Shown here in pieces: positions 5,805 through 64,000 of a DNA stretch of 64,000 nt (the first letter of the stretch is position 1; each line of letters opens with the position of its first letter). The DNA lies in contig OZ024740.1 of assembly GCA_964016885.1 (NCBI GenBank), forward strand, positions 416,268,001-416,332,000. Reading direction: 5' to 3'. A model generated the notes under the pieces. The model had not been told where the DNA came from. It saw only the letters and a program-made list of their open reading frames with translations, and searched no databases. A program made the translations under genes and the position numbers. Source of the stretch: Eledone cirrhosa. Lineage: Eukaryota.

Positions 5805-6135
5805 TCATCATCATTTCATTTTACATCCGCTTTTTCCCTGCTTGCAAGGGTGGGATGGGAACTGATTCTGGCTTGATTTCTACAGCTGGATGCCCTTCCT
5901 AACACCAACCTCATTTACAGTGAGTGCTGGGTGCTTTTTTGCCGTGGCACCTCCACGACCACTTTGCAGTGGAATGATAGGGACCCCAATCCCTATCATC
6001 TCATTTCTACAGCTGAGTAAACTGGAGCAATGTGAAATAAAGTGTCTTGCTCAAGGAAACAACACATCACCCGGTCTGAGAATTGAACTCACAACCTTTC
6101 GATTGCAAGGCCAATGCTCTAACCACTAAGCCATG
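5805..6135 (-). mobile_element. tRNA-derived SINE with RTE-type 3' tail (family A)
   Basis: Reverse complement of the 33658 copy: A box TGGCTTAGTGG, B box GAGTTCAATTC, CTTGAGCAAGACACTTTA core, repeat unit, AAGGGCATCCAGCTGTAG tail and (GAT)n end. Confidence 0.85.
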
Positions 6136-6750
6136 TAAAGCAATTTTTATTTGGATGCCTTATCCAACTGGTTACTTCATACATGTAAGAAATCTTACTC
6201 TGTTTTGAGAGATCTTAACCTTTATATGCTACTTGTTTTGAGGGAACTAGAAATGATGTTTTTTTTTGTTTGTTTTTTGTTTACATTCACAAAAGCATTC
6301 TAAATGTCTCAGAGATTTAGACATTTGTGAAAGTAATCTCATCTTGTATTCATGCACACACACACAAAGAGAAAAAATACAACCAACAGATAGGTAATCT
6401 AATGTCTTGGTGCAAAAAATAAATGTGCTTATCCCAAGATACAGTTGTTTATCTTCAAATGTGATAAATCTTCCATGAAATCAGATATTTTTTTATTTTT
6501 ATTCATGCATTTTCAAAAGACTGGATAATTTTTTTCTTTATAGCTCGGTAAACCAAGTCAAATAGAATAACATGTCCTGTCTTTATATATTAACTTCTAA
6601 CCTCTGAGCTCATAATGCAAGACTGTATTCAATATGCAGTTTTACATATACAATAGTGTATATGTAAAATATGTGTTCTGTTAGATGTGAATAGAAAATA
6701 TTGGTGCTAAGAATTCTAAAAATAAATAAATGAATAAAAGTAGTCTTTCA

Positions 6751-7267: not shown

Positions 7268-7401
7268 ATCCAGAATGGGCATCATGTACATTAGGTATTT
7301 TCCTTTGTCAAGACTGTGCTGGAATACATCGCAGTCTTTCAACTGGTGTCAGTCGAATAAAGTCTATACATTTGGACAGATGGGAATCTGAACAGCTTCA
7401 G
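7268..7401 (+). CDS. ADAP1: ADAP1/centaurin-alpha-like coding exon (ArfGAP zinc finger, second CxxC and catalytic Arg); first visible exon, the preceding exon is outside the window
   Basis: Poly-T tract + TAG acceptor and CAG|GTGAAT donor. Translates (D)PEWASCTLGIFLCQDCAGIHRSLSTGVSRIKSIHLDRWESEQLQ, the ArfGAP WAS..CxxCxGIHR..SRVKSxxLD motif. Confidence 0.93.
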
Positions 7402-8743: not shown

Positions 8744-9128
8744 ATCATCATCATCATCATCATCTACGTTTAACGTCCGTGTTTCATGCTTGCATGGGTT
8801 TGGACGGGGGTAGTCCCACTTGAGGCAAGAGTGATTGTCTTGCTCGCATAGGACTGTCTGGCAGGTTTTCTACAGTTGGATGCCCTTCCTAACACCAACC
8901 ACATTTACAGTGTGGGTCTGGGAGGTTTTTACCGTGTTGCCTACACGGCCACATTACAGCGTGGACTGTGTGTTTTTTTGTCGTGACACCTACACGATCT
9001 CATTTGTTTCGGCCTGGATGGCGCGGCACCAACATAACTTTACATAGAACGGGGTGGTGTGGATGGGGTGGGGGTGGTGGGACGGGGTGTATTTTGTTAG
9101 AGATGCCTACTGGCTGGAGTAGGTTTTA

Positions 9129-12100: not shown

Positions 12101-12304
12101 TTCAAGCATTTCTACAACCTCGTTAGCGTGACCCTTTAGGGTGCCTACATTTATGGTACCAACTCTGAAGTTTTGGATTGCGTTTGGAGGGTGGGGGCGG
12201 TGGGGGGCGGGGGGAGATGGGGTTATGTTAGCCATCCGCGGCCGAAACAAAGAGGAGTGCTCGCATTCTCGTCCACGAGGTGAATTTGACTTTAACTTTG
12301 GCAT
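9129..12304 (-). pseudogene. RTE ORF (AP endonuclease - reverse transcriptase with inserted PHD finger), disabled
   Basis: APE motifs GTINVGTL, CIQETRW, SAYAPQ, AGDLNGHVG, QVDYIL and SQHR; RT motifs FVDLEKAFDRV and GVHQGSVLSPLLF; RLRWYGHVMR..GRPRKTW tail. Frameshifts near 12020-12060 and YADD changed to YADN at ~10080. Confidence 0.93.
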
Positions 12305-12587
12305 TTTCGCTCTGAGCGTCCAGATTTTTCTCTCCCTTCCACTCTCCAGGATTCCGCAGTCCGTCCATCCATCCATCCATCCATCATATATCGAAGGCAA
12401 CCGGGCAAGCGATAGTATAGGCCTCTGGCTTATGATTGGTCCGCGTAATAATAATAATGGTGATGCGTGGGGGGGGGGGGGGTCTCTGGCTTATAATAAT
12501 AATGGCGATGCGTGGGGGGGGGGGCTCTGGCTTATGATTGGTCCACGTATTAAGAATGGTGGTGTGTGGGAGGGGTGTGGGGTAGCT

Positions 12588-16045: not shown

Positions 16046-16494
16046 TTTGAATGTTAAAGAATCAAACCAATAAAGATTTATATTTTGGAGAGTAACATCT
16101 AATATGATACAATAGAGGTTGGGAAGTGCTGGGTGATGTAAAGAGGAGGCAGGTGTAGTATAGTGTTGGTCTTGGTTGTACTTAATAGCTTGAAATAGGG
16201 TATGATAAAGAGCCCATTTCTAGTAAATATTGCTCTTGTTGTTGTTGTTCTCCTTCTCCTCCTTCTTCTCCTCCTCCTTGTTGATGTTGATGTCGATGTT
16301 GTTGAGAAGAAGAAATGTTTAAATTGGGCCTGGTGTTGGCCCATGAAAAATAGGTTTTCTTCTTTACCTATTTATTCCTGAGAGGGTCGTGGGGGCAGAG
16401 TCCTCAAACACTCCTTCCGTGTTCTGTCAGAAACAACCATCTCAAACTGATCCAGCTGGATCCCCAAGCAAGACCAGCTGAGCTCATGGATGTC

Positions 16495-17665
16495 ATCATC
16501 ATCATCCCCACTGTTTAACATCCATTTTTTTCCACGCTATTTTTCTACATTAGGCGAGTTGCCCCCTTTGTAAGATAAGTTGGATCAGATGACTGAGTCT
16601 TGTTCATATACAGAACTTTCTGGCTTAGTTTCTACAGCTGGATGCCCTTCCTAACACCAACCATATTTACAGTGTACTTTTTATTGTGGCACCAAAACAA
16701 CCAACTGACAGGTTGGACAGGGTGCTTTCTACCATGGCACCAAAATGACCACTTTACAGTGTGGACTGGGTATTTTTTTATTGTCACCAAAATGACCACT
16801 TTACAGTGTGGACTAGGTACTTTTTTATTGTCACCAAAATGACCACTTTACAGTGTGGACTGGGTACTTTTTATTGTCACCAAAATGACCACTTTACAGT
16901 GTGGACTGGGTACTTTTTATAGTCACCAAAATGACCACTTTACAGTGTGGACTGGGTACTTTTTATTGTCACCAAAATGACCACTTTACAGTGTGGACTG
17001 GGTACTTTTTATAGTCACCAAAATGACCACTTTACAGTGTGGACTGGGTACTTTTTATTGTCACCAAAATGACCACTTTACAGTGTGGACTGGGTACTTT
17101 TTATAGTCACCAAAATGACCACTTTACAGTGTGGACTGGGTACTTTTTATTGTCACTAAAATGACCACTTTACAGTGTGGACTGGGTACTTTTTATAGTC
17201 ACCAAAATGACCACTTTACAGTGTGGACTGGGTACTTTTTATTGTCACCAAAATGACCACTTTACAGTGTGGACTGGGTACTTTTTATAGTCACCAAAAT
17301 GACCACTTTACAGTGTGGACTGGGTACTTTTTATTGTCACCAAAATGACCACTTTACAGTGTGGACTGGGTACTTTTTTATTGTCACCAAAATGACCACT
17401 TTACAGTGTGGACTGGGTACTTTTTTATTGTCACCAAAATGACCACTTTACAGTGTGGACTGGGTACTTTTTTATTGTCACAAAAATGACCACTTTACAG
17501 TGTGGACTGGGTACTTTTTTATTGTCACCAAAATGACCACTTTACAGTGTGGACTGGGTACTTTTTTATTGTCACCAAAATGACCACTTTACAGTGTGGA
17601 CTGGGTACTTTTTTATTGTCACCAAAATGACCACTTTACAGTGTGGACTGAGCATTTTTTTGTCA
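16495..17665 (-). repeat. RTE-tail element whose internal unit expanded into a ~20-copy 46-47-bp minisatellite (16741-17650)
   Basis: (CAT)n start and CTACAGCTGGATGCCCTTCCTAACACCAACC, then the unit CAAAATGACCACTTTACAGTGTGGACTGGGTAC(T5-6)AT(T/A)GTCAC. Confidence 0.92.
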
Positions 17666-23777: not shown

Positions 23778-26700
23778 ATCATCATCATCATCATCGTTTA
23801 ACGTCCGTGTTCCATGCTTGCATGGGTTTGGACGGGGGTTTTCCCACTTGAGGCAAGAGTGATTATCTTGCTCGCATAGGACTATCTGGCGGGTTTTCTA
23901 CAGCTGGATGCCCTTCCTAACACCAACCACATTTACAGTGTGGGGCTGGGAGGTTTTTACTGTGTTGCCTACACGGCCACATTACAGCGTGAACTGTGTT
24001 TTTTTGACGTGACACCTACACGATCTCATTTGTTTCGGCCTGGATGTTGTGGCACCAACATAACTTTACATTGAAAGGGGCGGTGTGGATGGGGTGGGGG
24101 TGGTGGGACGGGGGTGTATTTTGTTAGAGATGCCTACTGACTGTAGTAGGTTTTACTTTGTATTTAGGTAAGGCGGGTCTTCTCTATTACTGAGTACCGC
24201 CAAAGGTCTCGGTCCAGTGACATTGTCTTGGTGAGGTGTAAGTGTGTGAGGTCGGAATTTATCAGCTCGGCCCAGGTTTTTCTGGGTCTGCCTATTCCGT
24301 GGCTACCGTCTATCTTTATTGCCCTGCACTTTGTTATACAGCTATCGTCCTTCATGCGCATCACGTGACCATACCAACGTAGCCTTCTCTCGAGTAAACA
24401 ACATCTGATCCCTCTTATTTCTAATTTTTTCCTTAGTTCGTTTATGCTTTGCCGTTCACGTATATTACTATTACACATCCAGCGGAGCATGCAAGCTTCG
24501 TTTCTCTCTAGTCTGCGTATATCCTCTGCACACAATGCCCAGGTCTCACTGCCATGCAACATTGCTGTTCGTATGCAGGCATTGTACAACCTGCCTTACA
24601 TTTTTAAGGGAAAACCCTTTAGCGGCTAATAGTGGTATAAGCTCTCTGAACTTTTTCCATCCAGTTCTGACTCTAGCTACTGTACTTTCAGAGCACCCTC
24701 CCCCACTGCTGATTTTGTCACCCAGGTAACGGAAGCTGTCCACTATTTCTATATAACCCTCTGCGCAGTTGAAAGAGCTAGTATTTTTTGGGCACTTGCT
24801 GCTACTTATTGCACCAGAGCACCGGCCACATGTAAAATCTATGTTCTTAGTTAGCTTACCTGTGATCCCACTACATCTTTTATGCACCCATACTTTGCAT
24901 TTGGGACACAAAATGGAGTTTCCACCTACGCCTTTCCTACACACTGAGCATGGCCACTTCCCGGAAGGGACCGCCGCCTTATTTTCTTTCTTACAAACTA
25001 GAACTTTAGTCTTAGCCAGGTTAATTTTAAGGCCTTTTGATTCTAGGCCGTGCTTCCATGTTTGGAATTTCTTCTCTAGCTCGGCCATTGATTCAGCTAT
25101 GAGTGTTAGGTCATCTGCGTATAGGAGTTCCCATGGGCAACCGGTCTTGAACTCCTCTGTTATAGCCTGAAGGGCAATAATAAATAGTAGGGGGCTGAGA
25201 ACAGAGCCCTGATGGACGCCAACTTTTACGCTGAACTCTTCACTATATTCGTTGTTAATTCTAACCTTGCTGACTGTTTCTTTATACATGGCTTGTATAG
25301 CTCTCACAAGCCATTCGTCAACACCTAGTTTTCTAAGAGCCCACCAGATAATGGAACGGAGGACTCTGTCGAAGGCTTTCTCCAAGTCGACAAAAGCTAA
25401 GTATAGGGGTTTACTTTTAGCTAGGTACTTCTACTGTAGTTGTCGTACAATGAAAAGAGCGTCTGTGGTACTTTTGCCTGACACAAACCCGAACTGCATT
25501 TCATCTAGATCAATTCTCTCTCTGATTATTTGCGCTATTACTTTTTCCGTGACCTTCATGACCTGGTCGATTAATTTAATGCCTCTATAGTTACTCCTAT
25601 CTAGGGCATCTCCTTTACCCTTATAACAGTTAACGATGATGCTGCTACGCCAGTCCTTCGGAACAACCCCATTCTGTACGACTTGGTTGACTATCTGGGT
25701 GACCATGGTGTGTCCCACCGTACCGGATGCCTTCAGCATCTCGGCAACTATTTCCGAAGGCCCAGCCGCCTTACCCATCTTCATATCTTTGATTGCCTTA
25801 CTTATTATACTACCCTCGACTAACACTGCTGGTCCCTCTATTGGGTCGATGTGGGGGGAGACTGTCTTTCTCCCATTTATTCTCCTCATTTAGTAGCCTT
25901 TCATAGTGACACTTCCAAGCTACCTTCTTATCAGTGTCGGTGATGGCAAGTACGCCGTCATCATTAAGAACACACTTCTCCCCGACAATATCACAGTTTT
26001 CCTTGACACATTGCCTAGCAATCCTGAACACCTCACGTTTTTGGTCCTCGTGTTGTAGAACATGCTTGAACTTTCTTTCCTCTGCTTCCCTTCTTGCGAA
26101 GTACACTTGTCTCCTAGCTTCCCTCCTGGCCACTTGATAGTCTTCTCTGCTTCCCCCATCCCGCCATACTTTCCAAGCCTGCTTTTTGGCCTTAATTGAC
26201 CCCTCCACCTTACTGTTCCACCACCATGTTACTCTCCTCCTGCCTACAGGCCTGCTCCAGCCACAGACTTCGTCTGCCGCCATCAGCAGGTTTGCTTTCA
26301 GGAATTCCCACTGCTCCTCTATATTGTACGACTCTAATTGCTCTTCCTTATTGTCAAAAGCATCAAGTAGTATACTTTTGAATTTATTTCTGGCTGTGGG
26401 GTCCTTTAGCTTCCATATTTTTCTCCTGAGGATAGTCCTCTTCTGTTGTCTAGTACGTCTCGTCCTGACTATTAGGTCGCTAATTATCAGTCTATGTTGG
26501 GAGGTGCATTCTTCATGGGGGAGGGATTTAGTGTTTACAACAGACACTCTGTCACGTCTTCTGGTAAGGATATAGTCTACCTGGCTTGTGTGTTCCCCCA
26601 ATCTATAGGTGATCAGGTGATTGTCACGTTTTTTGAAGTTAGTGTTACAGATAGTTAGGTTATTTGCGTAACAGAATTCCAGGATTCTGGAGCCTTCCTC

Positions 26701-27810
26701 ATTTCTAGTACCAAACCCATAGCCTCCATGGATTTCGTCGTAGCCGTCACAATGTTATCCAACGTGACCATTTAGGTCGCCTGCAATAATTATATAGTCA
26801 CTGTCAGTTATTTGGGAGGTAGTGAGCATCAGTGTCTCATAGAATCTGTCTTTTATAGTGCCGGGCAGTCCGGATTGGGGTGCGTACGCAGATATTACTG
26901 TCACCGTCGTTCTACTGAGGACAAGTCTTATTTTAATTATTCTGTCGTTCACTCTATTTACGTCTATTATCTTATCTGCCCACTTTTCTGCTACCATGAT
27001 TCCTATGCCACCCAGCCTATTGTCATTTCCCACCCAGAAAAGCTTATAGCATCGTTTTTTACCCACAATGAATCTAGCAGACCCACCCCTCCACCTGGTC
27101 TCTTGAATACAACAAACATCGACCTCCTTACGTTCAAGCATTTCTACAACCTCGTTAGAGCAACCCTTTAAGGTGCCTACATTCATGGTACCAACTCTGA
27201 AGTTTTGGATTGCGTTTGGAGGGTGGGAGCGGTGGGGAGCGGGGGGAGATGGGGTTATGTTAGCCATCCGCGGCCGAAACAAAGAGGAATGCTCGCATTC
27301 TCGTCCACGAGGTGAATTTGTCTTTGGCATTGTCGCTGAGCGTCCAGATTTTTCTCTCTTCAACTCTCCGGAATTCCGTAGTCCTTCCATCCGACATATC
27401 GAAGGCGACCAGGTAAGCGATAGTATAGGCCTCTGGTTTATGATTGGTCCACGTAATAATAATGGTGGTGCGTGGGGGCGGGAGGGAGGGGTGTTGAGTT
27501 GTTAGCGAGAAGAATAGGTTTAAGTAAGATCCTCGTATTTAACAAGCGATAACAAAAATACAAGATTTGTTTAGTAAAATACGACAAAAACTTCGTATTT
27601 AACAAGCAATAACAAAAAATACAAGATTTGTTTTGGAAAATACGAGAAAATACACAGAATACAGGAGGATTTGTTTTGGAAATAGGATAGAATAGCTAGT
27701 AGTGAAGCAAGAATTGGAATCTGAGGATAGAAAATGCTATCGAATTGTCGCGGATTGGAAGGACTATGAAATTAAGCGGATGTTAGAAAGGCAAGAAAAA
27801 TGTGTACATT
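23778..27810 (-). mobile_element. RTE-clade LINE copy 2
   Basis: (GAT)n tail, 3' UTR and ORF nearly identical to copy 1. The 5' region aligns to part of a single monomer. Confidence 0.92.
24164..27330 (-). pseudogene. RTE ORF copy 2 (APE-RT-PHD), split by frameshifts and stops but with intact YADD
   Basis: ORF pieces 26755-27390, 25810-26601, 25431-25889, 24546-25385 and 24164-24589 tile the copy-1 protein; in-frame stops occur at HVG* and QLQ*KY. Confidence 0.93.
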
Positions 27811-30764: not shown

Positions 30765-31297
30765 AGGATGGTGTCATACCTAATGACTGGCATGGCTGTA
30801 TCATCGTTAAAGACTACAAGAACATCAAGTTGATGAACCTGGTCATGGAAGTTATTGAAAGTGTTATAGCACAACTGATTAGGGACAGTGCACACATTTT
30901 TAGAGCAAGGGAATGCAATAAGTAGATAAAAAGCACCCAGTCCACCTTGTAAAGTGGTTGTGCTGGTGACACAACAAAAAGCACCCAGTTCACCCTGTAA
31001 AGTGGTCACGTTAGTGACAACAAAAAGCACCCAGTCTACTCTGTAAAATGGTCATGTTGGTGATATGACAAAAACCACTTAGTTCAACCTGTCAGTTGGT
31101 TGTTTTGGTGCCACAATAAAAAGCACCCGGTTGACACTGTAAATGTGGTTGGTGTTAGCAAGGGCATCCAGCTGTAGAAACTAAGCCAGAAACAGTTCTG
31201 TATGAGCAAGACACAGTCAACTGATCTAACTTGTCTCACAATGGGACAATACGTCTAACCCATGTTAGCATGGAAAAATGGACGTTAAATGGTGGTG
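30765..31297 (+). mobile_element. RTE RT fragment followed by ~4-5 repeat units and the RTE tail
   Basis: DGVIPNDWHGCIIV and YKNIKLMNLVMEVIESVIAQLIR (cf. copy 1), then AAAAGCACCCAG..CTGTAAAGTGG units, AAGGGCATCCAGCTGTAG and a GGACGTTAAATGGTGGTG end. Confidence 0.7.
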
Positions 31298-33606: not shown

Positions 33607-33657
33607 CTCCTTCCCTTCTTACTTCTCCCCCCTCGCTCTCACTCTTTATATATATAT

Positions 33658-33965
33658 GGAGGCACATGGCTTAGTGGTTAGAGCATTGGCCTAGCAATCG
33701 AAAGGTTGTGAGTTCAATTCTCAGACCGGGTGATGTGTTGTTTCCTTGAGCAAGGCACTTTATTTCACATTGCTCCAGTTTACTCAGCTGTAGAAATGAG
33801 GTCGTGGAGGTGCCACGGCAAAAAAGCACCCAGCACTCACTGTAAATGAGGTTGGTGTTAGGAAGGGCATCCAGCTGTAGAAATCAAGCCAGAATCAGTT
33901 CCCGTCCCACCCTTGCAAGCAGGGAAAAGTGGACGTAAATGAAATGATGATGATGAAATGATGAT
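33658..33965 (+). mobile_element. tRNA-derived SINE with RTE-type tail (family A)
   Basis: GGAGGCACATGGCTTAGTGG (A box), GAGTTCAATTC (B box), core, one 48-bp-type unit, GGAAGGGCATCCAGCTGTAGAAA and (GAT)n. Confidence 0.88.
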
Positions 33966-36310: not shown

Positions 36311-36341
36311 ATGATTTTTTCAATTCATTATTTGTATCCCT

Positions 36342-39463: not shown

Positions 39464-39754
39464 TTAACTCAACATTTTCTGTGTATTTTATGATCAGAAT
39501 ACATCAGTAGCTCTTATTCTCATATAGACATTGCTGAAGATTATAGCAGTCTGGTTTAAAAACTATCACACTTTCACTTCTAATTAAATTAGGAAGGAAT
39601 AATCCTTTTATTGCATCTTTTGAAGAATTAGTTTTCCATTTATGTATTCGAATATTTTGTATAAAAACTATGCACCGCTTTCACCTCCATCACCTTTCCA
39701 TACACCCCATCCACGCCCCTAGATCTACCTCCCTAATCTACATGCATCTCACCC

Positions 39755-40645
39755 CCACCGTAAAGTGGTCATGTAGGTGTCACAACAAAAAGCGCCCAGT
39801 CCACAGTGTAAAGTGGTCATCTATGTGCCACCACAAAATGCACCCAGTCCACTCTGTAAAGTGGTCATCTGTGTGCCACCACAAAAAGCACCCAGTCCAC
39901 ACTGTAAAGTGGTCATGTAGGTGCAATGATAAAAAGCACCCAGCCCACACTGTAAATGGTCATCTATGTGCCACCACAAAATGCACCCAGCCCACACTGT
40001 AAATGGTCATCTATGTGCCACCACAAAAAGCACCCAGCCCACACTGTAAAGTGGTCATCTATGTGCCACCACAAAAAGCACCCAGCCCACACTGTAAAGT
40101 GGTCATCTATGTGCCACCACAAAAAGCACCCAGCCCACACTGTAAAGTGGTCATCTATGTGCCACCACAAAAAGCACCCAGCCCACACTGTAAAGTGGTC
40201 ATCTATGTGCCACCACAAAAAGCACCCAGCCCACACTGTAAAGTGGTCATCTATGTGCCACCACAAAAAGCACCCAGCCCACACTGTAAAGTGGTCATCT
40301 ATGTGCCACCACAAAAAGCACCCAGCCCACACTGTAAAGTGGTCATCTATGTGCCACCACAAAAAGCACCCAGCCCACACTGTAAAGTGGTCATCTATGT
40401 GCCACCACAAAAAGCACCCAGCCCACACTGTAAAGTGGTCATGTAGGTGCTATAAGAAAAAGCACCCAGGCCACACTGTAAATGTCATTGGCATTAGGAA
40501 TGGCATCCAGCTGTAGAAACCAAACCAAAATCAGTTCTCTATGAGGAAGACATGGTCACCTAACCTGGCTTGAATCACGACAGGACAACTCGTCTAACCC
40601 ATGCTAGCATGGAAAATGGACATTAAACGATGATGATGATGATGA
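39755..40645 (+). repeat. RTE-tail element with ~15 x 48-bp minisatellite
   Basis: Unit AAAAAGCACCCAGCCCACACTGTAAAGTGGTCATCTATGTGCCACCAC, then GGCATCCAGCTGTAGAAAC and (GAT)n. Confidence 0.92.
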
Positions 40646-41242
40646 TAATAAATCTCATTGTGATCTCATCAGGATCAGTGTGATTTAGCAGTTGTGGTTT
40701 CATATAATGTCACTTCACTGCTGGGTTTAACTTAAATGTTGAAGAAATGTGTGGAGACTTTTGATCTTTGATTTTTTTAAAACAAAAATTGGCAGAAGTT
40801 AAAAGGCTATAAGAATGATTTATTTGACACACCTCACCTGCCCTTCACAGGCCCTGCCTATGAAAGCCAAACACTGACCTCTCACAATGCCGTGACATGA
40901 CATAAAGCCTAAAGCCCACCCTATATGCTGGTCTGGCACCACAACATCAAAAGCACCTAGTCCATCCTGTGACACAAGAAAAAGCACTCAGTCCACCTGT
41001 AAAGTGGTTGTTTCAGTGTCATGATAAAAAGTACCCAATGGTTGGTGTTAGGAAAGGCATCCAGCTGTAGAAACAAAGCTAAAATACAAATATATATGAG
41101 CAAAACATAGTCTCCGGATGTCACTTGTCTCATAACGTGACAACCTGTCTGACCATGCTAGCATGGAAAATGGATGTTAAACAATGATGATGAAATGTAT
41201 TAAAGACAGATATAGTTTGTTATATTGCACTTGAATCAGTAA

Positions 41243-42796: not shown

Positions 42797-42833
<37 letters not shown>

Positions 42834-42835
<2 letters not shown>

Positions 42836-43348: not shown

Positions 43349-43661
43349 GTAACAAGATAGTTATCCTTATTGTTTTAATATTTTTTCTTTATTTTTTTTT
43401 ATGCTGGCATGGTTTGTTGAGTTTTCTTGATAGAGAATATATTTAATTTGGAGATGGCCTGTGAATTTGGTTTTATCTCCGAATCAAATATGTTCTCTGT
43501 TTGTGTTTGCTGTAATTCCTTTTATTGATTAACTAATTATGCAATCTGAACCTGATGATGTTGCCAGTGTCTTACGTAACCAGGTCATTGAAATTCATTG
43601 CAATAACAGTAGAAGAGATAGAAAATAGGAACAGCATGACTACAAAGTAGGGTTATATTAT

Positions 43662-46600
43662 CATCATCATCATCACCATTTTACATCCATTCTTTCAGGC
43701 TAGCAAGGGTTGGACGGGTTGTCCTGTTGTGTGACCTAGTCTTGATGATACGGGAACTAATTTTCTACAGCTGGATGCTTTTTTTCTGTGGCACCTACAT
43801 GGCCACTTTACATTGAGGGCTGAGTGCTTGTTTGTCGTGACACCTCCATGGCCACTTTACAGTGAGGGCTGAGTGCTTGTTTGTCGTGACACCTACATGG
43901 CCACTTTACAGTGAGGGCTGAGTGCTTGTTTGTCGTGACACCTACATGGCCACTTTACAGTGAGGGCTGAGTGCTTGTTTGTCGTGACACCTACATGGCC
44001 ACTTTACAGTGGGGCTGAGTGCTTGTTTGTCGTGACACCTACATGGCCACTTTACAGTGAGGGCTGAGTGCTTGTTTGTCGTGACACCTACATGGCCACT
44101 TTACAGTGAGGGCTGAGTGCTTGTTTGTCGTGACACCTACATGGCCACTTTACAGTGAGGGCTGAGTGCTTGTTTGTCGTGACACCTCCACGACCACTTT
44201 ACAGTGAGGGCTGAGTGTTTGTATGTCGTGACACCTCCACGACCACTTTACAGTGAGGGCTGAGTGCTTGTTTGTCGTGACACCTCCACGGCCACTTTAC
44301 AGTGAGGGCTGAGTGCTTGTTTGTCGTGGCACCTCCACGACCACTTTACAGTGAGGGCTGAGTGCTTGTTTGTCGTGACACCTCCATGGCCACTTTACAG
44401 TGAGGGCTGAGTGCTTGTTTGTCGTGGCACCTCCACGACCACTTTACAGTGAGGGCTGAGTGCTTGTTTGTCGTGACACCTCCATGGCCCCTTTACAGTG
44501 AGGGCTGAGTGCTTGTTTGTCGTGACACCTCCATGGCCACTTTACAGTGAAGGCTGAGTGCTTGTTTCTCGTGGCACCTACATGGCCACTTTACAGTGAG
44601 GGCTGAGTGCTGTTTGTCGTGACAACTATATGTCCACTTTACATTGAGGGCTGAGTGCTTGTTTGTCGTGACACCTACATGGCCACTTTACAGTGAAGGC
44701 TGAGTGCTTGTTTGTCGTGACACCTCCACTACCACTTTACAGTGAGGGCTGAGTGCTTGTTTGTCGTGACACCTACATGGCCACTTTACAGTGAGGGCTG
44801 AGTGCTTGTTTGTCGTGACACCTCCATGGCCACTTTACAGTGAGGGCTGAGTGCTTGTTTGTCGTGACACCTACATGGCCACTTTACAGTGAGGGCTGAG
44901 TGCTTGTTTGTCGTGACTCCTACATGGCCACTTTACAGTGAGGGCTGAGATTGTTTGTCATGACACCTACATGACCACTTTACAGTGAGGGCTGAGTGCT
45001 TGTTTGTCGTGACACCTCCATGGCCACTTTACCGTGAGGGCTGAGTGCTTGTTTGTCGTGGCACCTCCACGACCACTTTACAGTGAGGGCTGAGTGCTTG
45101 TTTGTCGTTACACCTCCATGGCCACTTTACAGTGAAGGCTGAGTGCTTGTTTCTCGTGGCACCTACATGGCCACTTTACAGTGAGGGCTGAGTGCTTGTT
45201 TGTCGTGACTCCTACATGGCCACTTTACAGTGAGGGCTGAGTGCTTATTTGTCGTGACACCTACATGGCCACTTTACAGTGAGGGCTGAGTGCTTGTTTG
45301 TCGTGACACCTCCACTACCACTTTACAGTGAGGGCTGAGTGCTTGTTTGTCGTGACACCTACATGGCCACTTTACAGTGAGGGCTGAGTGCTTGTTTGTC
45401 GTGACACCTACATGGCCACTTTACAGTGAGGGCTGAGTGCTTGTTTGTCGTGACACCTACATGGCCACTTTACAGTGGAGCTAAGTGCTTGTTTGTCGTG
45501 ACACCTACATGGCCACTTTACGGTGGAGCTGAGTGCTTGTTTGTCGTGACACCTACATGGCCACTTTACAGTGAGGGCTGAGTGCTTGTTTGTCGTGACA
45601 CCTACATGGCCACTTTACACTGAGGGCTGGGTGCTTGTTTGTCATGACACCTACATGGCCACTTTACAGTGAGGGCTGAGTGCTTGTTTGTCAAGACACA
45701 TCCACGACCACTTTACAGTGAGGGCTGAGTGCTTGTTTGTCGTGACACCTCCATGGCCACTTTACAGTGAGGGCTGAGTGCTTGTTTGTTGTGACCCCTC
45801 CATGGCCACTTTACAGTGAGGGCTGAGTGCTTGTTTGTCGTGACATCTCCACGACCACTTTTCAGTGAGGGCTGAGTGCTTGTTTGTCGTGACACCTCCA
45901 TGGCCACTTTACAGTGAGGGCTGAGGGCTTGTTTGTTGTGACACCTCCATGGCCACTTTACAGTGAGGGCTGAGTGCTTGTTTGTCGTGACACCTACATG
46001 GCCACTTTACAGTGAGGGCTGAGTGCTTGTTTGTCGTGACACCTACATGGCCACTTTACGGTGAGGGCTGACTGCTTGTTTGTCGTGACACCTACATGGC
46101 CACTTTACAGTGAGGGCTGGGTGCTTGTTTGTCGTGACACCTACATGGCCACTTTACAGTGAGGGCTGAGTGCTTGTTTGTCGTGACACCTACATGGCCA
46201 CTTTACGGTGAGGGCTGAGTGCTTGTTTGTCGTGACACCTCCATGGCCACTTTACAGTGAGGGCTGAGTGCTTGTTTGTCGTGACACCTACATGGCCACT
46301 TTACAGTGAGGGCTGAGTGCTTGGTTGTCCTGACACCTCCATGGCCACTTTACAGTGAGGGCTGAGTGCTTGTTTGTCGTGACACCTCCATGGCCACTTT
46401 ACAGTGAGGGCTGAGTGCTTGTTTGTCGTGACACCTACATGGCCACTTTACGGTGAGGGCTGAGTGCTTGTTTGTCGTGACACCTACATGGCCACTTTAC
46501 GGTGAGGGATGAGTGCTTGTTTGTCGTGACACCTCCACTACCACTTTACAGTGAGGGCTGAGTGCTTGTTTGTCGTGACACCTACATGGCCACTTTACAG

Positions 46601-49600
46601 TGAGGGCTGAGTGTTTGTTTGTCGTGACTCCTACATGGCCACTTTACAGTGAGGGCTGAGTGCTTGTTTGTCGTGACACCTCCACTACCACTGTACAGTG
46701 AGGGCTGAGTGCTTGTTTGTCGTGGCACCTCCACGACCACTTTACAGTGAGGGCTGAGTGCTTGTTTGTCGTGACACCTCCATGGCCACTTTACAGTGAG
46801 GGCTGAGTGCTTGTTTCTCGTGCCACCTACATGGCCACTTTACAGTGAGGGCTGAGTGCTTGTTTGTCGTGACAACGACATGTCCACTTTACATTGAGGG
46901 CTGAGTGCTTGTTTGTCGTGACACCTCCACTACCACTTTACAGTGAGGGCTGAGTGCTTGTTTGTCGTGACTCCTACATGGCCACTTTACAGTGAGGGCT
47001 GAGTGCTTGTTTGTCGTGACACCTACATGGCCACTGTACACTGAGGGCTGGGTGCTTGTTTGTCATGACACCTACATGGCCACTTTACAGTGACGGCTGA
47101 GTGCTTGTTTGTCAAGACACATCCACGACCACTTTACAGTGAGGGCTGAGTGCTTGTTTGTCGTGACACCTCCATGGCCACTTTACAGTGAGGGCTGAGT
47201 GCTTGTTTGTCGTGACACCTCCATGGCCACTTTACAGTGAGGGCTGAGTGCTTGTTTGTCGTGACATCTCCACGACCACTTTACAGTGAGGGCTGAGTGC
47301 TTGTTTGTCGTGACAACGACATGGCCACTTTACAGTGAGGGCTGAGTGCTTGTTTGTCGTGACACCTCCACTACCACTTTACAGTGAGGGCTGAGTGCTT
47401 GTTTGTCGTGACTCCTACATGGCCACTTTACAGTGAGGGCTGAGTGCTTGTTTGTCGTGACACCTACATGGCCACTTTACAGTGAGGGCTGAGTGCTTGT
47501 TTGTCATGACACCTACATGACCACTTTACAGTGAGGGCTGAGTGCTTGTTTGTCGTGGCACCTCCACGACCACTTTACAGTGAGGGCTGAGTGCTTGTTT
47601 GTCGTTACACCTCCATGGCCACTTTACAGTGAAGGCTGAGTGCTTGTTTCTCGTGGCACCTACATGGCCACTTTACAGTGAGGGCTGAGTGCTTGTTTGT
47701 CGTTACACCTCCATGGCCACTTTACAGTGAAGGCTGAGTGCTTGTTTCTCGTGGCACCTACATGGCCACTTTACAGTGAGGGCTGAGTGCTTGTTTGTCG
47801 TGACTCCTACATGGCCACTTTACAGTGAGGGCTGAGTGCTTATTTGTCGTGACACCTACATGGCCACTTTACAGTGAGGGCTGAGTGCTTGTTTGTCGTG
47901 ACACCTCCACTACCACTTTACAGTGAGGGCTGAGTGCTTGTTTGTCGTGACACCTACATGGCCACTTTACAGTGAGGGCTGAGTGCTTGTTTGTCGTGAC
48001 ACCTACATGGCCACTTTACAGTGAGGGCTGAGTGCTTGTTTGTCGTGACACCTACATGGCCACTTTACGGTGGAGCTGAGTGCTTGTTTGTCGTGACACC
48101 TACATGGCCACTTTACGGTGGAGCTGAGTGCTTGATTGTCGTGACACCTACATGGCCACTTTACAGTGAGGGCTGAGTGCTTGTTTGTCGTGACACCTAC
48201 ATGGCCACTTTACACTGAGGGCTGGGTGCTTGTTTGTCATGACACCTACATGGCCACTTTACAGTGAGGGCTGAGTGCTTGTTTGTCAAGACACATCCAC
48301 GACCACTTTACAGTGAGGGCTGAGTGCTTGTTTGTCGTGACACCTCCATGGCCACTTTACAGTGAGGGCTGAGTGCTTGTTTGTTGTGACCCCTCCATGG
48401 CCACTTTACAGTGAGGGCTGAGTGCTTGTTTGTCGTGACATCTCCACGACCACTTTTCAGTGAGGGCTGAGTGCTTGTTTGTCGTGACACCTCCATGGCC
48501 ACTTTACAGTGAGGGCTGAGGGCTTGTTTGTTGTGACACCTCCATGGCCACTTTACAGTGAGGGCTGAGTGCTTGTTTGTCGTGACACCTACATGGCCAC
48601 TTTACAGTGAGGGCTGAGTGCTTGTTTGTCGTGACACCTACATGGCCACTTTACGGTGAGGGCTGACTGCTTGTTTGTCGTGACACCTACATGGCCACTT
48701 TACAGTGAGGGCTGGGTGCTTGTTTGTCGTGACACCTACATGGCCACTTTACAGTGAGGGCTGAGTGCTTGTTTGTCGTGACACCTACATGGCCACTTTA
48801 CGGTGAGGGCTGAGTGCTTGTTTGTCGTGACACCTCCATGGCCACTTTACAGTGAGGGCTGAGTGCTTGTTTGTCGTGACACCTACATGGCCACTTTACA
48901 GTGAGGGCTGAGTGCTTGGTTGTCCTGACACCTCCATGGCCACTTTACAGTGAGGGCTGAGTGCTTGTTTGTCGTGACACCTCCATGGCCACTTTACAGT
49001 GAGGGCTGAGTGCTTGTTTGTCGTGACACCTACATGGCCACTTTACGGTGAGGGCTGAGTGCTTGTTTGTCGTGACACCTACATGGCCACTTTACGGTGA
49101 GGGATGAGTGCTTGTTTGTCGTGACACCTCCACTACCACTTTACAGTGAGGGCTGAGTGCTTGTTTGTCGTGACACCTACATGGCCACTTTACAGTGAGG
49201 GCTGAGTGTTTGTTTGTCGTGACTCCTACATGGCCACTTTACAGTGAGGGCTGAGTGCTTGTTTGTCGTGACACCTCCACTACCACTGTACAGTGAGGGC
49301 TGAGTGCTTGTTTGTCGTGGCACCTCCACGACCACTTTACAGTGAGGGCTGAGTGCTTGTTTGTCGTGACACCTCCATGGCCACTTTACAGTGAGGGCTG
49401 AGTGCTTGTTTGTCGTGACACCTCCATGGCCACTTTACAGTGAAGGCTGAGTGCTTGTTTCTCGTGCCACCTACATGGCCACTTTACAGTGAGGGCTGAG
49501 TGCTTGTTTGTCGTGACAACGACATGTCCACTTTACATTGAGGGCTGAGTGCTTGTTTGTCGTGACACCTACATGGCCACTTTACAGTGAGGGCTGAGTG

Positions 49601-52600
49601 CTTGTTTGTCGTGACACCTCCACTACCACTTTACAGTGAGGGCTGAGTGCTTGTTTGTCGTGACTCCTACATGGCCACTTTACAGTGAGGGCTGAGTGCT
49701 TGTTTATCGTGACACCTACATGGCCACTTTACACTGAGGGCTGGGTGCTTGTTTGTCATGACACCTACATGGCCACTTTACAGTGACGGCTGAGTGCTTG
49801 TTTGTCAAGACACATCCACGACCACTTTACAGTGAGGGCTGAGTGCTTGTTTGTCGTGACACCTCCATGGCCACTTTACAGTGAGGGCTGAGTGCTTGTT
49901 TGTTGTGACACCTCCATGGCCACTTTACAGTGAGGGCTGAGTGCTTGTTTGTCGTGACATCTCCACGACCACTTTACAGTGAGGGCTGAGTGCTTGTTTG
50001 TCGTGACACCTACATGTCCAATTTACATTGAGGGCTGAGTGCTAGTTTGTCGTGACACCTACATGGCCACTTTACAGTGAGGGCTGAGTGCTTGTTTGTC
50101 GTGACACCTCCACTACCACTTTACAGTGAGGGCTGAGTGCTTGTTTGTCGTGACTCCTACATGGCCACTTTACAGTGAGGGCTGAGTGCTTGTTTGTCGT
50201 GACACCTACATGGCCACTTTACAGTGAGGGCTGAGTGCTTGTTTGTCGTGACTCCTACATGGCCACTTTACAGTGAGGGCTGAGATTGTTTGTCATGACA
50301 CCTACATGACCACTTTACAGTGAGGGCTGAGTGCTTGTTTGTCGTGGCACCTCCACGACCACTTTACAGTGAGGGCTGAGTGCTTGTTTGTCGTGGCACC
50401 TCCATGGCCACTTTACAGTGAGGGCTGAGTGCTTGTTTGTCGTTACACCTCCATGGCCACTTTACAGTGAAGGCTGAGTGCTTGTTTCTCGTGGCACCTA
50501 CATGGCCACTTTACAGTGAGGGCTGAGTGCTTGTTTGTCGTGACTCCTACATGGCCACTTTACAGTGAGGGCTGAGTGCTTATTTGTCGTGACACCTCCA
50601 TGGCCACTTTACAGTGAGGGCTGAGTGCTTATTTGTCGTGACACCTCCATGGCCACTTTACAGTGAGGGCTGAGTGCTTATTTGTCGTGACACCTCCACT
50701 ACCACTTTACAGTGAGGGCTGAGTGCTTGTTTGTCGTGACACCTACATGGCCACTTTACAGTGAGGGCTGAGTGCTTGTTTGTCGTGACACCTACATGGC
50801 CACTTTACAGTGAGGGCTGAGTGCTTGTTTGTCGTGACACCTACATGGCCACTTTACAGTGGAGCTGAGTGCTTGTTTGTCGTGACACCTCCATGGCCAC
50901 TTTACAGTGAGGGCTGAGTGCTTGTTTGTTGTGACACCTCCATGGCCACTTTACAGTGAGGGCTGAGTGCTTGTTTGTTGTGACATCTCCACGACCACTT
51001 TACAGTGAGGGCTGAGTGCTTGTTTGTCGTGACACCTACATGGCCACTTTACGGTGAGGGCTGAGTGCTTGTTTGTCGTGACACCTCCATGGCCACTTTA
51101 CGGTGAGGGCTGAGTGCTTGTTTGTCGTGACAACTACATGGCCACTTTACAGTGAGGGCTGAGTGCTTGTTTGTCGTGACACCTCCATGGCCACTTTACA
51201 GTGAGGGCTGAGTGCTTGTTTGTCGTGACACCTACATGGCCACTTTACAGTGAGGGCTGAGTGCTTGTTTGTCGTGACACCTCCATGGCCACTTTACAGT
51301 GAGGGCTGAGTGCTTGTTTGTCGTGACACCTATATGGCCACTTTACGGTGAGGGCTGAGTGCTTGTTTGTCGTGACACCTACATGGCCACTTTACGGTGA
51401 GGGATGAGTGCTTGTTTGTCGTGACACCTCCACTACCACTTTACAGTGAGGGCTGAGTGCTTGTTTGTCGTGACACCTACATGGCCACTTTACAGTGAGG
51501 GCTGAGTGCTTGTTTGTCGTGACACCTCCATGGCCACTTTACAGTGAGGGCTGAGTGCTTGTTTGTCATGACACCTACATGGCCACTTTACGGTGAGGGC
51601 TGAGTGCTTGTTTGTCGTGACAACGACATGTCCACTTTACAGTGAGGGCTGGGTGCTTGTTTGTCGTGACACCTACATGGCAACTTTACAGTGAGGGCTG
51701 AGTGCTTGTTTGTCGTGACACCTCCATGGCCACTTTACAGTGAGGGCTGAGTGCTTGTTTGTCGTGACACCTCCACGACCACTTTACAGTGAGGGCTGAG
51801 TGCTTGTTTGTCGTGGCACCTCCATGGCCACTTTACAGTGAGGGCTGAGTGCTTGTTTGTCGTTACACCTCCATGGCCACTTTACAGTGAAGGCTGAGTG
51901 CTTGTTTCTCGTGACACCTCCACTACCACTTTACAGTGAGGGCTGAGTGCTTGTTTGTCGTGACACCTACATGGCCACTTTACAGTGAGGGCTGAGTGCT
52001 TGTTTGTTGTGACACCTACATGGCCACTTTACAGTGAGGGCTGAGTGCTTGTTTGTCGTGACACCTACATGGCCACTTTACAGTGGAGCTGAGTGCTTGT
52101 TTGTCGTGACACCTACATGGCCACTTTACAGTGGAGCTGAGTGCTTGTTTGTCGTGACACCTACATGGCCACTTTACAGTGAGGGCTGAGTGCTTGTTTG
52201 TCATGACACCTACATGGCCACTTTACAGTGAGGGCTGAGTGCTTGTTTGTCAAGACACCTCCATGGCCACTTTACAGTGAGGGCTGAGTGCTTGTTTGTC
52301 ATGACACCTCCATGGCCACTTTACAGTGAGGGCTGAGTGCTTGTTTGTCGTGACACCTACATGGCCACTTTACAGTGAGGGCTGAGTGCTTGTTTGTCGT
52401 GACACCTCCATGGCCACTTTACACTGAGGGCTGGGTGCTTGTTTGTCATGACACCTACATGGCCACTTTACAGTGAGGGCTGAGTGCTTGTTTGTCAAGA
52501 CACATCCACGACCACTTTACAGTGAGGGCTGAGTGCTTGTTTGTCGTGACACCTCCATGGCCACTTTACAGTGAGGGCTGAGTGCTTGTTTGTTGTGACA

Positions 52601-55430
52601 CCTCCATGGCCACTTTACAGTGAGGGCTGAGTGCTTGTTTGTCGTGACATCTCCACGACCACTTTACAGTGAGGGCTGAGTGCTTGTTTGTCGTGACACC
52701 TACATGGCCACTTTACAGTGAGGGCTGAGTGCTTGTTTGTCGTGACACCTACATGGCCACTTTACGGTGAGGGCTGAGTGCTTGTTTGTCGTGACACCTA
52801 CATGGCCACTTTACAGTGAGGGCTGAGTGCTTGTTTGTCGTGACACCTACATGGCCACTTTACGGTGAGGGCTGAGTGCTTGTTTGTCGTGACACCTACA
52901 TGGCCACTTTACAGTGAGGGCTGAGTGCTTGTTTGTCGTGACACCTACATGGCCACTTTACAGTGAGGGCTGAGTGCTTGTTTGTCGTGACACCTACATG
53001 GCCACTTTACGGTGAGGGCTGAGTGCTTGTTTGTCGTGACACCTACATGGCCACTTTACACTGAGGGCTGGGTGCTTGTTTGTCGTGACACCTACATGGC
53101 CACTTTACAGTGAGGGCTGAGTGCTTGTTTGTCGTGACACCTACATGGCCACTTTACGGTGAGGGCTGAGTGCTTGTTTGTCGTGACACCTACATGGCCA
53201 CTTTACACTGAGGGCTGGGTGCTTGTTTGTCGTGACACCTACATGGCCACTTTACGGTGAGGGCTGAGGGCTTGTTTGTTGTGACACCTCCATGGCCACT
53301 TTACAGTGAGGGCTGAGTGCTTGTTTGTCGTGACACCTACATGGCCACTTTACAGTGAGGGCTGAGTGCTTGTTTGTCGTGACACCTACATGGCCACTTT
53401 ACGGTGAGGGCTGAGTGCTTGTTTGTCGTGACACCTACATGGCCACTTTACACTGAGGGCTGGGTGCTTGTTTGTTGTGACACCTACATGGCCACTTTAC
53501 AGTGAGGGCTGAGTGCTTGTTTGTCGTGACACCTACATGGCCACTTTACACTGAGGGCTGGGTGCTTGTTTGTTGTGACACCTACATGGCCACTTTACAG
53601 TGAGGGCCGAGTGCTTGTTTGTCGTGACACCTACATGGCCACTTTACAGTGAGGGCTGAGTGCTTGTTTGTCGTGACACCTACATGGCCACTTTACAGTG
53701 AGGGCTGAGTGCTTGTTTGTCGTGACACCTACATGGCCACTTTACAGTGAGGGCTGAGTGCTTGTTTGTCGTGACACCTACATGGCCACTTTACACTGAG
53801 GGCTGGGTGCTTGTTTGTTGTGACACCTACATGGCCACTTTACAGTGAGGGCCGAGTGCTTGTTTGTCGTGACACCTACATGGCCACTTTACAGTGAGGG
53901 CTGAGTGCTTGTTTGTCGTGACACCTACATGGCCACTTTACAGTGAGGGCTGAGTGCTTGTTTGTCGTGACACCTCCACGACCACTTTACAGTGAGGGCT
54001 GAGTGCTTGTTTGTCGTGACACCTCCACGACCACTTTACAGTGAGGGCTGAGTGATTGTTTGTCATGACACCTACATGGCCACTTTACAGTGAGGGCTGA
54101 GTGCTTGTTTGTCGTGACACCTCCATGGCCACTTTACAGTGAGGGCTGAGTGCTTTTTTGTCGTGGCACCTTCACGACCACTTTACAGTGAGGGCTGAGT
54201 GATTGTTTGTCGTGACACCTACATGGCCACTTTACAGTGAGGGCTGAGTGCTTGTTTGTCGTGACACCTCCATGGCCACTTTACAGTGAGGGCTGAGTGC
54301 TTGTTTGTCGTGACACCTACATGTCCACTTTACATTGAGGGCTGAGTGCTTCTTTGTCGTGACACCTCCATGGCCCCTTTACACTGAGGGCTGAGTGCTT
54401 GTTTGTCGTGACACCTACATGTCCACTATACAGTGAGGGCTGAGTGCTTCTTTGTCGTGACACCTCCATGGCCACTTTACAGTGAGGGCTGAGTGCTAGT
54501 TTGTCGTGACACCTACATGGCCACTTTACACTGAGGGCTGAGTGCTTGTTTGTCGTGACACCTCCACTACCACTTTACAGTGAGGGCTGAGTGCTTGTTT
54601 GTCGTGAAACCTCCATGGCCACTTTACAGTGAGGGCTGAGTGATTGTTTGTCGTGATTCCTACATGGCCACTTTACAGAGAGGGCTGAGTGCTTGTTTGT
54701 CGTGTCACCTACATGACCACTTTACAGTGAGTGCTGAGTGCTTGTTTGTCGTGACACCTCCATGGCCACTTTACAGCGAGGGCTGAGTGCTTGTTTGTCG
54801 TGACACCTACATGGCCACTTTACACTGAGGGCTGGGTGCTTGTTTGTCGTGACACCTACATGGCCACTTTACAGTGAGGGCTGAGTGCTTGTTTGTCGTG
54901 ACACCTACATGGCCACTTTACAGTGAGGGCTGAGTGCTTGTTTGTCGTGACACCTACATGGCCACTTTACTGTGAGGGCTGAGTGCTTGTTTGTCGTGAC
55001 ACCTACATGGCCACTTTACAGTGAGGGCTGAGTGCTTGTTTGTCGTGACACCTACATGGCCACTTTACAGTGAGGGCTGAGTGCTTGTTTGTCGTGGCAC
55101 CTACATGGCCACTTTACAGTGAGGGCTGAGTGCTTGTTTGTCGTGACACATCCACGACCACTTTACAGTGAGGGCTGAGTGCTTGTTTGTCGTGACACCT
55201 ACATGGCCACTTTACAGTGAGGGCTGAGTGCTTGTTTGTCGTGACACCTCCACGACCACTTTACAGTGAGGGCTGAGTGCTTGTTTGTCGTGGCACCTAC
55301 ATGGCCACTTTACAGTGAGGGCTGAGTGCTTGTTTGTCGTGGCACCTACATGGCCACTTTACAGTGAGGGCTGAGTGCTTGTTTGTCGTGACACCTCCAT
55401 GGCCACCTTACAGTGAGGGCTGAGGGCTTT
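43662..55430 (-). repeat. ~11.6-kb intronic satellite of ~237 x 49-bp units grown from an RTE-tail element
   Basis: (CAT)n + CTACAGCTGGATGC leader at 43662-43780, then the unit GGCCACTTTACAGTGAGGGCTGAGTGCTTGTTTGTCGTGACACCT(A/C)CAT from ~43790 to ~55428. Confidence 0.97.
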
Positions 55431-55882
55431 CATTGTTTAACATCCAATTTCCATGCTAGTCAAGTTGGGTCAGGTGACCGTGTCTCGCTCATGTAGGACT
55501 GTTTCTGGCTAGGTTTCTACAGCTGGATGCTCTTTCTAATGCCAACCACATTTACAGTGTGGGCTGGATGCTTTTTGTCATAACACCAAATGTGTATATA
55601 TACGTATATACATACATATATGTATAAATATAACCACGATTTGTAGTCATGCTGTTTCTTTTATCTATCTTTCTTTCTGTTATTGCAATGGATTTTGGTC
55701 CTCTCAATTAGCTAGCAGCCTACCACTTCTTCCCTGGTTCATCTTTCATCCCCTCCCCCCTTTCATTTTTATATTATCCCTATTGTGTCTTATTCCCTAA
55801 AACCAACACTAAACACTTTCCCCAATTATTCTTTCCACAGAACAACAATTATTTCATTTCTTTATTTATTCTACATTTGTAG

Positions 55883-56014
55883 TTGTGTGATGACTTAACA
55901 AGAAGTTTCAGTAAAGAAGGTTGGCTCAGTAAAAAAGGACCAAGAGATGAACCATTTCGGAAGCGGTGGTTTACATTTGATCGTAGAAAGTTGATGTATT
56001 TTGAAGAACCTTTG
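55883..56014 (+). CDS. ADAP1: ADAP1-like coding exon (PH2 N-terminal)
   Basis: tttgtag acceptor, TTG|GTGAGT donor. Translates LCDDLTRSFSKEGWLSKKGPRDEPFRKRWFTFDRRKLMYFEEPL (KEGW.xK.GP...FxKRWF phosphoinositide-binding signature). Confidence 0.93.
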
Positions 56015-61662: not shown

Positions 61663-61993
61663 TCATCATCATCATCATTTTACGTCCGCTTTTCCCTGCT
61701 TGCAAGGGCGGGACAGGAACTGGTTCTGGCTTGATTTCTACAGCTGGATGCCCTTCCTAACACCAACCACATTTACAGTGGGTGCTTTATTGCCGTGGCA
61801 CCTCCACGACCACTTCGCAGTGGAATGATATGGACCCCAGTCCCTATCATCTCATTTCTACAGCTGAGTAAACTGGAGCAATGTGAAATAAAGTGTCTTG
61901 CTCAAGGAAACAACACATCACCCAGTCTGAGAATTGAGCTCACAACCTTTCGATTGCAAGACCAATGCTCTAACCACTAAGCCATGTGCCTCC
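61663..61993 (-). mobile_element. tRNA-derived SINE family A
   Basis: Nearly identical to 5805-6135 and reverse complement of 33658-33965. Confidence 0.88.
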
Positions 61994-62104
61994 AGTTTAT
62001 ATATAATATTGTCTTTTTTAAATGTATCCTGGATAACTTTACTGAAAAGTCTCTTTTCAATTTCTGTGTATATTGTCAATTACGATTTTATTTGATGTAT
62101 CATA

Positions 62105-63767: not shown

Positions 63768-64000
63768 TCATCATCATCATCATCGTTTAACGTCCGTGTT
63801 CCATGCTTGCATGGGTTTGGACAGAGGGTTTTCCCACTTGAGGCAAGAGTGGTTATCTTGCTCGCATAGGACTATCTGGCGGGTTTTCTACAGCTGGATG
63901 CCCTTCCTAACACCAACCACATTTACAGTGTGGGGCTGGGAGGTTTTTACCGTGTTGCCTACACGGCCACATTACAGCGTGAACTGTGTGTTTTTTTTTA
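63768..64000 (-). mobile_element. 3' end of a third RTE LINE copy (runs off the window)
   Basis: Nearly identical to 23778-24005, including (CAT)n and GTTTAACGTCCGTGTTCCATGCTTGCATGGG. Confidence 0.88.

Follow-up and report, generated by a model that had tools for sequence, protein, structure and literature searches.

Several known satellites derive from the untranslated regions (UTRs) of retroelements or from whole short elements. In legumes, tandem repeats in the 3' UTR of Ogre, a Tat-lineage long terminal repeat (LTR) retrotransposon, expand into satellites (PMC7004042; for PisTR-A, PMC9659126). Among non-LTR elements, 3' regions have supplied the HeT-A 18HT satellite of Drosophila, the cetacean common satellite (from L1) and the chicken HinfI satellite (from CR1), while the short interspersed element (SINE) B1 gave rise to a variable-number tandem repeat (VNTR) family in the mouse, with many independent expansions (PMC9659126). 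RTE elements also make microsatellite families (PMC2887409). Here we analyze a 64,000-nucleotide stretch of the Eledone cirrhosa genome (assembly GCA_964016885.1, contig OZ024740.1, positions 416,268,001 to 416,332,000; the window), in which a unit of 46 to 50 bp occurs in the 3' UTR of an RTE-type long interspersed element (LINE), in a SINE, and in tandem arrays, among them the focal array at 43776-55429. The resulting LINE-SINE-minisatellite-satellite series is real and well supported; the principle that a retroelement UTR can become a satellite is already known.

As in the Ogre case, short 3'-UTR units of a retroelement are dispersed with their element and occasionally grow into long arrays in favoured chromosome regions. 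Unlike that case, the carrier is a non-LTR LINE with a single endonuclease-reverse transcriptase (RT) open reading frame (ORF) and a short-repeat tail, accompanied by a SINE, rather than a Tat/Ogre LTR element; the seed holds one or two units, all arrays draw on a single unit family, and the long arrays favour contig ends and small contigs, whereas those of Ogre favour primary constrictions. The HeT-A, L1, CR1 and B1 satellites likewise take their monomer from a LINE 3' region or a SINE, but here a single genome spans the range from one unit to the 100-kb scale, with the tail attached and with LINE and SINE both involved. The RTE microsatellites share with our case the seeding of genome-wide tandem repeats by 3' ends of the RTE clade; they consist of the short terminal repeat, whereas our unit is an internal piece of UTR upstream of the tail.

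Octopus genomes contain abundant tRNA-CORE SINEs (OR1) and RTE-BovB and RTE-2_OV LINEs (PMC4824008, PMC8967140, PMC9115989), a pair that our elements appear to resemble. The description of RTE-2_OV includes a C2H2 finger and a microsatellite UTR, and the portions of it considered here mention no minisatellite unit or satellite arrays. Such arrays also go unmentioned in the corresponding portions of the octopus repeat papers, supplementary repeat libraries aside (PMC13282606, PMC8967140, PMC9115989, PMC4824008, PMC5786205), and the word "satellite" occurs 0 times in that of PMC13282606. A literature search, with Repbase, Dfam and older octopus SINE papers outside its scope, found no description of a LINE-SINE-satellite series. 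The series matters because the origins of satellites, and the reasons for their growth at particular sites, are usually inferred from end states, while here seeds and their derivatives run from one to thousands of units, often still attached to a tail that can be dated. With the seed planted roughly 100,000 times (a rough figure, from 22 blocks in 400 kb), the genome offers a natural experiment in which the positions that permit growth, the rate of growth and the trade of units between arrays become testable.

A unit common to a LINE, a SINE and the arrays of the window

Tandem Repeats Finder (TRF) reported the focal array at 43776-55429 with a period of 49, 238.1 copies and 93% matches. It runs on the minus strand and comprises 238 units of 49 bp (a few of 47-48 bp), 83 of them distinct, with a consensus of its own; for 236 of 237 units, the nearest unit lies within the same array. 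The array is fused to the 3' tail of the RTE-type LINE family. At 43660..43778 (-) stands an element 3' end that comprises a (GAT)n tail, further tail sequence and the first 14 bases (43765-43778) of a 20-bp block, the remainder of which was lost in a deletion that joins block to unit. This tail has a profile score of 84.6 bits and lies 26 bp from the first copy of a 12-bp motif within the unit. A second tail with block and one unit (55430..55590, -) is fused, in the same orientation, to the far end. The modal unit of the array agrees with the second LINE unit at 39 of 49 positions and with the SINE unit at 40 of 49.

The LINE itself is nearly whole (8745..12480, -; 5' limit approximate). Its ORF (9129-12095) is a single 988-aa frame with an endonuclease (PF14529), an RT (PF00078) and a PHD finger, followed by a 3' UTR with a G-rich tract (9041-9095), two diverged units (8899-8998), the block (8870-8889) and a (GAT)n tail (8745-8764), to which tails in LINE relatives are similar. 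One ORF with an apurinic/apyrimidinic-type endonuclease and RT, together with a 3' end of short tandem repeats, points to an RTE-type element. Two further copies lie in the window: one at 23778..27480 (-), 94.4% identical over 3740 bp, with a broken ORF and two units, and a 3' end at 63768..64000 (-), truncated at the window edge. The monomer stands as the same short tandem of two units in 10 of 10 LINE ends retrieved with the UTR, none of them expanded. Two side features of the LINE may be recorded here. The PHD finger (residues 726-769) follows the RT core and is common to many of at least 120 homologues, and the G-rich tract, which adjoins the units, has many GG/GGG runs on the plus (cDNA) strand and could form a quadruplex.

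The SINE has block, unit and tail in common with the LINE (81.7% identity over 104 bp); in its standard form, a complete unit is accompanied by an additional copy of the 12-bp motif. In the window, a young copy at 5806..6177 (-) has this structure with a LINE-type tail and relatives 98-99% identical to it, a second member of the family (33640..33960, +) has one unit, and a third (61664..61995, -) has its first unit shortened. The head may be tRNA/CORE-like, as in CORE-SINEs of the OR1/OR2 type; ARAGORN and Rfam returned no tRNA or known RNA family in the window, as is usual for decayed SINE heads. All 30 SINEs retrieved by their head alone carried one unexpanded unit (one had a rearrangement 5' of the unit, another a damaged block). 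Among whole SINEs, 82 of 90 had one unit, and expanded copies held 3, 5, 12, 12, 22 and 25 units between tail and head. These six have no diagnostic change in common and form no clade; the nearest relatives of each are one-unit SINEs.

A BLAST search with the LINE 3' UTR connected all four TRF arrays of the window. Besides the focal array, these are about 21 units of 46-47 bp with their own variant at 16490..17665 (-) (TRF 16674-17665, 46 bp x 21.3), about 5 diverged units at 30928..31290 (+) (TRF 30928-31156, 48 bp x 4.8), and 15 units of 48 bp with a remnant of the G-rich UTR at 39700..40650 (+) (TRF 39752-40482, 48 bp x 15.3), each with tail and block. A reading of this DNA made from its letters alone (hereafter the sequence-only reading) had placed the unit in the LINE 3' UTR, the SINEs and these arrays, and TRF and BLAST confirmed it. 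With up to 3 mismatches allowed, the window contains 16 copies of the block, whereas 20 base-shuffles of its non-array part contained 0 copies each.

In distant relatives of the LINE from metagenomes, the block recurs with a similar tail end, while a 46-50-bp tandem was absent from 31 of 31 of their 3' regions (short-read contigs, with many 3' regions short). The block is therefore old and the unit a gain of this lineage. Block and tail end are kept in LINE relatives (retrieved loci L201-L279) at about 45% protein identity, and this conservation suggests that the two form an old cis-element of the LINE group. Contigs of two sequencing runs labelled as other organisms also contain the block followed by the unit, so the unit is not confined to this species.

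Anchoring and length range across the genome

Across the 3.0-Gb assembly (C, contigs; L, retrieved loci), we sampled loci by searches with units alone, which score about 40 candidates each and are biased to long, query-like arrays. The 3' side was visible in 80 arrays, of which 51 had tail and block, 4 had the tail only and 25 had neither. Two giant arrays and two that the motif scan had passed over and TRF found (L063 and L076) bring the total to 84, with 59 anchored to a tail and 25 tail-less; the chance expectation for a correctly oriented tail within 230 bp is 0.6-2%. Three arrays whose 3' ends were not reached (L321, C3:374.0 Mb and C3:370.40 Mb) are outside these totals, whose rows are not all independent: a single insertion accounts, through its paralogs, for five of the anchored rows, and another for two of the tail-less ones. 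Evenly spaced stretches (630 kb) contained arrays at 5 of 64 blocks, all 5 anchored, and distal stretches (140 kb) added two long arrays, one tail-less and one with its 3' end not reached; in random stretches together, 5 of 6 arrays with a visible end were anchored. The sequence-only reading had expected every unit array to adjoin block and tail, and had named tail-less arrays in the majority as the outcome that would count against it. In the window the rule holds; genome-wide most arrays are anchored, yet universal anchoring fails.

Arrays inside SINEs and LINE 3' UTRs always follow the orientation of the element. One locus (L076) has 109 copies of the second LINE unit with UTR on both sides, and at another (L091), where the ORF end is preserved as well, the LINE UTR contains 82 units. 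At the upper end of the range, an array of more than 1,000 units at C26:23586410-23639937 was read through over 53.5 kb and starts at a whole tail and block. On C1, an array that also starts at a whole tail and block runs from 2483108 to 2300001 or beyond; if continuous, as judged from two read stretches and six probes, it measures at least 183 kb. A third, at C3:373.90-374.01 Mb, spans at least 110 kb, if unbroken as judged from read stretches and probes. The two largest resolved arrays (C1 and C26) thus retain tail and block, and element sequence borders arrays throughout the length range. Their placement between tail and body in SINEs and inside LINE UTRs, their orientation and the tails of the two giants support the earlier proposal of the LINE/SINE tail as a mobile seed. 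Larger arrays lack the tail more often (20 of 47, compared with 5 of 33 arrays of up to 15 units; p 0.014), in keeping with deletion from unstable arrays.

Long arrays favour contig ends and the smallest chromosome-scale contigs, weakly so in random samples. A query with the focal unit placed 21 of 35 loci on C25-C27 (2.5% of the genome) versus 0 of 40 SINE-head matches, and arrays of at least 10 units occurred in 0 of 40 interior, 2 of 14 distal and 2 of 23 small-contig random stretches (p 0.049). A second query gave loci over many contigs, several of them within 3-10 Mb of contig ends. Human subtelomeric minisatellites show a positional effect linked to recombination, and by analogy the bias here may reflect recombination as well.

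Probable growth in place, probable exchange between arrays, and competing explanations

The focal array represents an expansion of the 3'-UTR unit carried by an RTE-type LINE or SINE insertion. We consider it probable that DNA-level duplication and exchange after insertion produced it, with units also passing between loci. An exact block of 25 units with 17 distinct unit types (45562..46786, strand not assigned) recurs at 48157..49381, at an offset of 2595 bp, or 53 units, and sits inside a longer, imperfect 53-unit duplication; 30 shuffles gave ordered runs of at most 5 units. Ordered duplications of 20, 13, 9 and 8 units occur in L086, L075, L083 and L091, and none in several other arrays (L062, L077, L087 and L090). 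One insertion has been copied together with its flanks (91-97% identical upstream) and now holds 5, 10, 11 and 23 motifs in L303, L314, L318 and L291; its fifth paralog is the 53.5-kb array on C26. The flanks of L314, which were examined, hold decayed element fragments only. This set gives a handle on growth rate, since its flanks have diverged by about 5-9% while unit numbers have come to range from 5 to more than 1,000; together with the 25-unit duplication it upholds the earlier claim of expansion in place. A second pair, at C27:17.31-17.33 Mb, consists of tail-less arrays of 156 (L335) and 10 (L086) units beside duplicated exons. Both arrays begin at a CAT-rich tract right after these cysteine-rich exons, which are presumably EGF-like. 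The focal tail differs by 10% from the nearest of 204 tails compared, a distance that is an upper bound, while focal units differ by 3.9% from their modal unit; tail divergence exceeded unit divergence in 15 of 22 arrays, the 7 exceptions including the youngest SINE arrays. Growth was likely after insertion.

The course of events begins with dispersal: the LINE lineage and the SINEs carry one or two 46-50-bp units beside the old block and (GAT)n tail and have spread them genome-wide. A first extra unit could then arise by slippage between two bracketing 9-12-bp copies of the motif, during replication or reverse transcription. Once several units are present, unequal exchange or repair synthesis would duplicate blocks, homogenize private variants and bring arrays to tens to hundreds of kilobases; the focal array and the one paralog set display this outcome. 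Long arrays would finally drop the tail or seed tail-less tracts and trade units among themselves, a pattern seen in the sampled loci, for which ectopic repair or gene conversion is the most likely route of exchange. The sequence-only reading had offered RT slippage and unequal exchange as alternatives; exchange after insertion fits, and slippage by the RT would explain the first few units at most.

The 12-bp motif is the best-kept part of the unit (0.97 versus 0.84-0.89 across 81 TRF consensus units), partly because the searches favour it. Its likely part is that of a direct repeat on either side of the single SINE unit, which permits the first duplication. Among expanded SINEs, 5 of 6 have the last motif in its perfect-match form, compared with 17 of 84 unexpanded ones; this may be a cause or a result of expansion. 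The motif had also been described as a CACT-TTAC-AGTG mini-hairpin; its sequence is indeed the best kept, but we rejected a functional structure. Three units fold worse than shuffles (RNA z +2.6, DNA z +1.45), the LINE UTR has a fold z of -1.07, and the stem is broken in LINE and SINE units and in 27 of 86 modal units, including arrays of 56, 90 and more than 1,000 units, with no compensatory changes among the 86 arrays.

Whether units are private or common to several arrays was judged by nearest-neighbour counts. Units differ on average by 3.75 within arrays and 8.40 between them; of 1755 units, 937 were nearest to a unit of their own array, 641 were tied and 177 were nearer to another array. 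The three large arrays of the window are private variants, as the sequence-only reading had held for each large array, but genome-wide this breaks down: one consensus is identical across many loci, and about 18 loci (an interpretive count) have a common 48-bp pool, with type A at 14 loci and type B at 12. Fifteen of the pool loci are on C25-C27 and 13 are without a tail. An array from the evenly spaced sample (L170) holds four foreign units of the 48-bp pool amid the SINE-type units of a SINE array, and in L069 the unit type switches midway; these mosaics indicate that units move between families. The intermingling of loci that had been named as a sign of a captured satellite is thus partly seen, but it points to exchange between arrays rather than to such capture, because element sequence persists where it is expected beside the majority of arrays. 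Wholesale copying of arrays between loci was rejected, since ordered runs common to loci did not exceed shuffles (maximum 5 versus 4).

Several observations weigh against growth in place as the whole account. The youngest SINE arrays (L073, L085, L086, L087 and L090) have units 3-6% diverse beside tails diverged by 1-3%, and they contain little ordered duplication, where simple in-place growth predicts otherwise. The tail-less arrays L072 and L089 stand at LINE junctions that resemble template switches, the excess on C25-C27 is limited to some variants, the second query being widely spread, and an error of assembly might underlie the exact 2595-bp duplication, although the duplicated sequence extends further in both directions with differences.

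Movement of units between families is compatible with both ectopic conversion and RT template jumps. In L072 the array replaces about 18 bases of the LINE ORF end, in L089 it follows an inverted LINE piece, and in L164 and L065 a SINE 5' end follows the array at junctions that also resemble template switches. In L164 (3430-3480), L065, L146 and L156, truncated elements end in, or repeat, the last 25-40 bases of the SINE 5' end, and these junctions show signs of template jumps. One reading, which we regard as unlikely though worth weighing, is that the LINE RT jumps between LINE, SINE and array transcripts at their common motif, so that retrotransposition seeds, remixes and re-plants a tail-less satellite; such a satellite family would evolve through RNA and a borrowed enzyme. 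Slightly less credible is the view that arrays are made mainly at insertion, many units at once, by an RT that slips or jumps at the common motif between LINE, SINE and array RNAs. A start inside a unit would leave the tail uncopied, and the start points of 11 of 23 tail-less arrays do fall within the final 13 of the 48 positions of the unit (p 0.03); the mosaics, the four junctions and the unexpected diversity of young SINE arrays also fit. It cannot yield 5 versus more than 1,000 units from one insertion, ordered multi-kilobase duplications with common private changes, or arrays of 50-180 kb, and its pause site is without folding support. Target-site duplications of at least 7 bases were found in 0 of 24 tail-less arrays, but in just 1 of 45 anchored ones; control SINEs lay in (TA)n, with 8 of 27 non-simple (11% by shuffle).

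SVA is a SINE-like element with a head, a variable internal VNTR and a LINE-mobilized tail. By analogy, a few master LINEs or SINEs with long mixed arrays could retrotranspose them, many loci thereby inheriting one pool. The spread of types A and B, the consensus identical at many loci and the 82 units of L091 in a LINE UTR with the ORF end are what this would leave, but the lack of ordered runs between loci beyond shuffles, the scattered origins of the expanded SINEs and the private focal consensus make it improbable. A VNTR as a standing, inherited part of a master was not found; unlike SVA, the standard SINE here has one unit and expanded copies arise independently.

Least probable is an older satellite that gave its unit to the LINE UTR and survives as the tail-less arrays: these make up 25 of 84, and the absence of the unit from 31 distant 3' regions would allow a gain from an outside source, but the two largest resolved arrays start at an intact tail and block, the tail-less arrays fall mostly in the least diverged pool, and random-stretch arrays are anchored in five of six cases.

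Host gene and other repeats

Growth in place of the focal array, as we propose it, implies no function for the host. The array is intronic, in a gene with an ArfGAP exon at 7270..7401 (+) (PF01412, E 2e-17) and a PH exon at 55883..56014 (+) (PF00169, E 2.6e-6), the latter just downstream of the array; we presume the gene to be ADAP/centaurin-alpha-like. In annotation, such intronic arrays would be filed as anonymous tandem repeats.

At 42830-43050, the SINE tail end is present as two short, inverted copies that flank (TA)n and point towards each other, and a third tail comes next. A duplication of about 600 bp with internal repeats of 26, 46 and 72 bp (12900-14450) lies upstream of the LINE 5' end. 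Tandem growth is general in this genome: among 106 TRF rows of 42-53 bp from the retrieved loci, 25 represent other families. An unrelated, SINE-head-like unit of 45 bp occurs as 2 tandem copies in the window (36340-36431), 50 in L062 (7014-9265) and 7 in L331 (3165-3474), and is possibly a second element-derived minisatellite family. Another 48-bp tandem family, unrelated to the unit, is present in two contigs (L070, 1-1635; L324, 4827-5060). Unrelated arrays of the window lie at 7496-8106 (236 bp x 2.6) and at 62095-63763 (61 bp x 27.6), the latter directly beside the third LINE tail.

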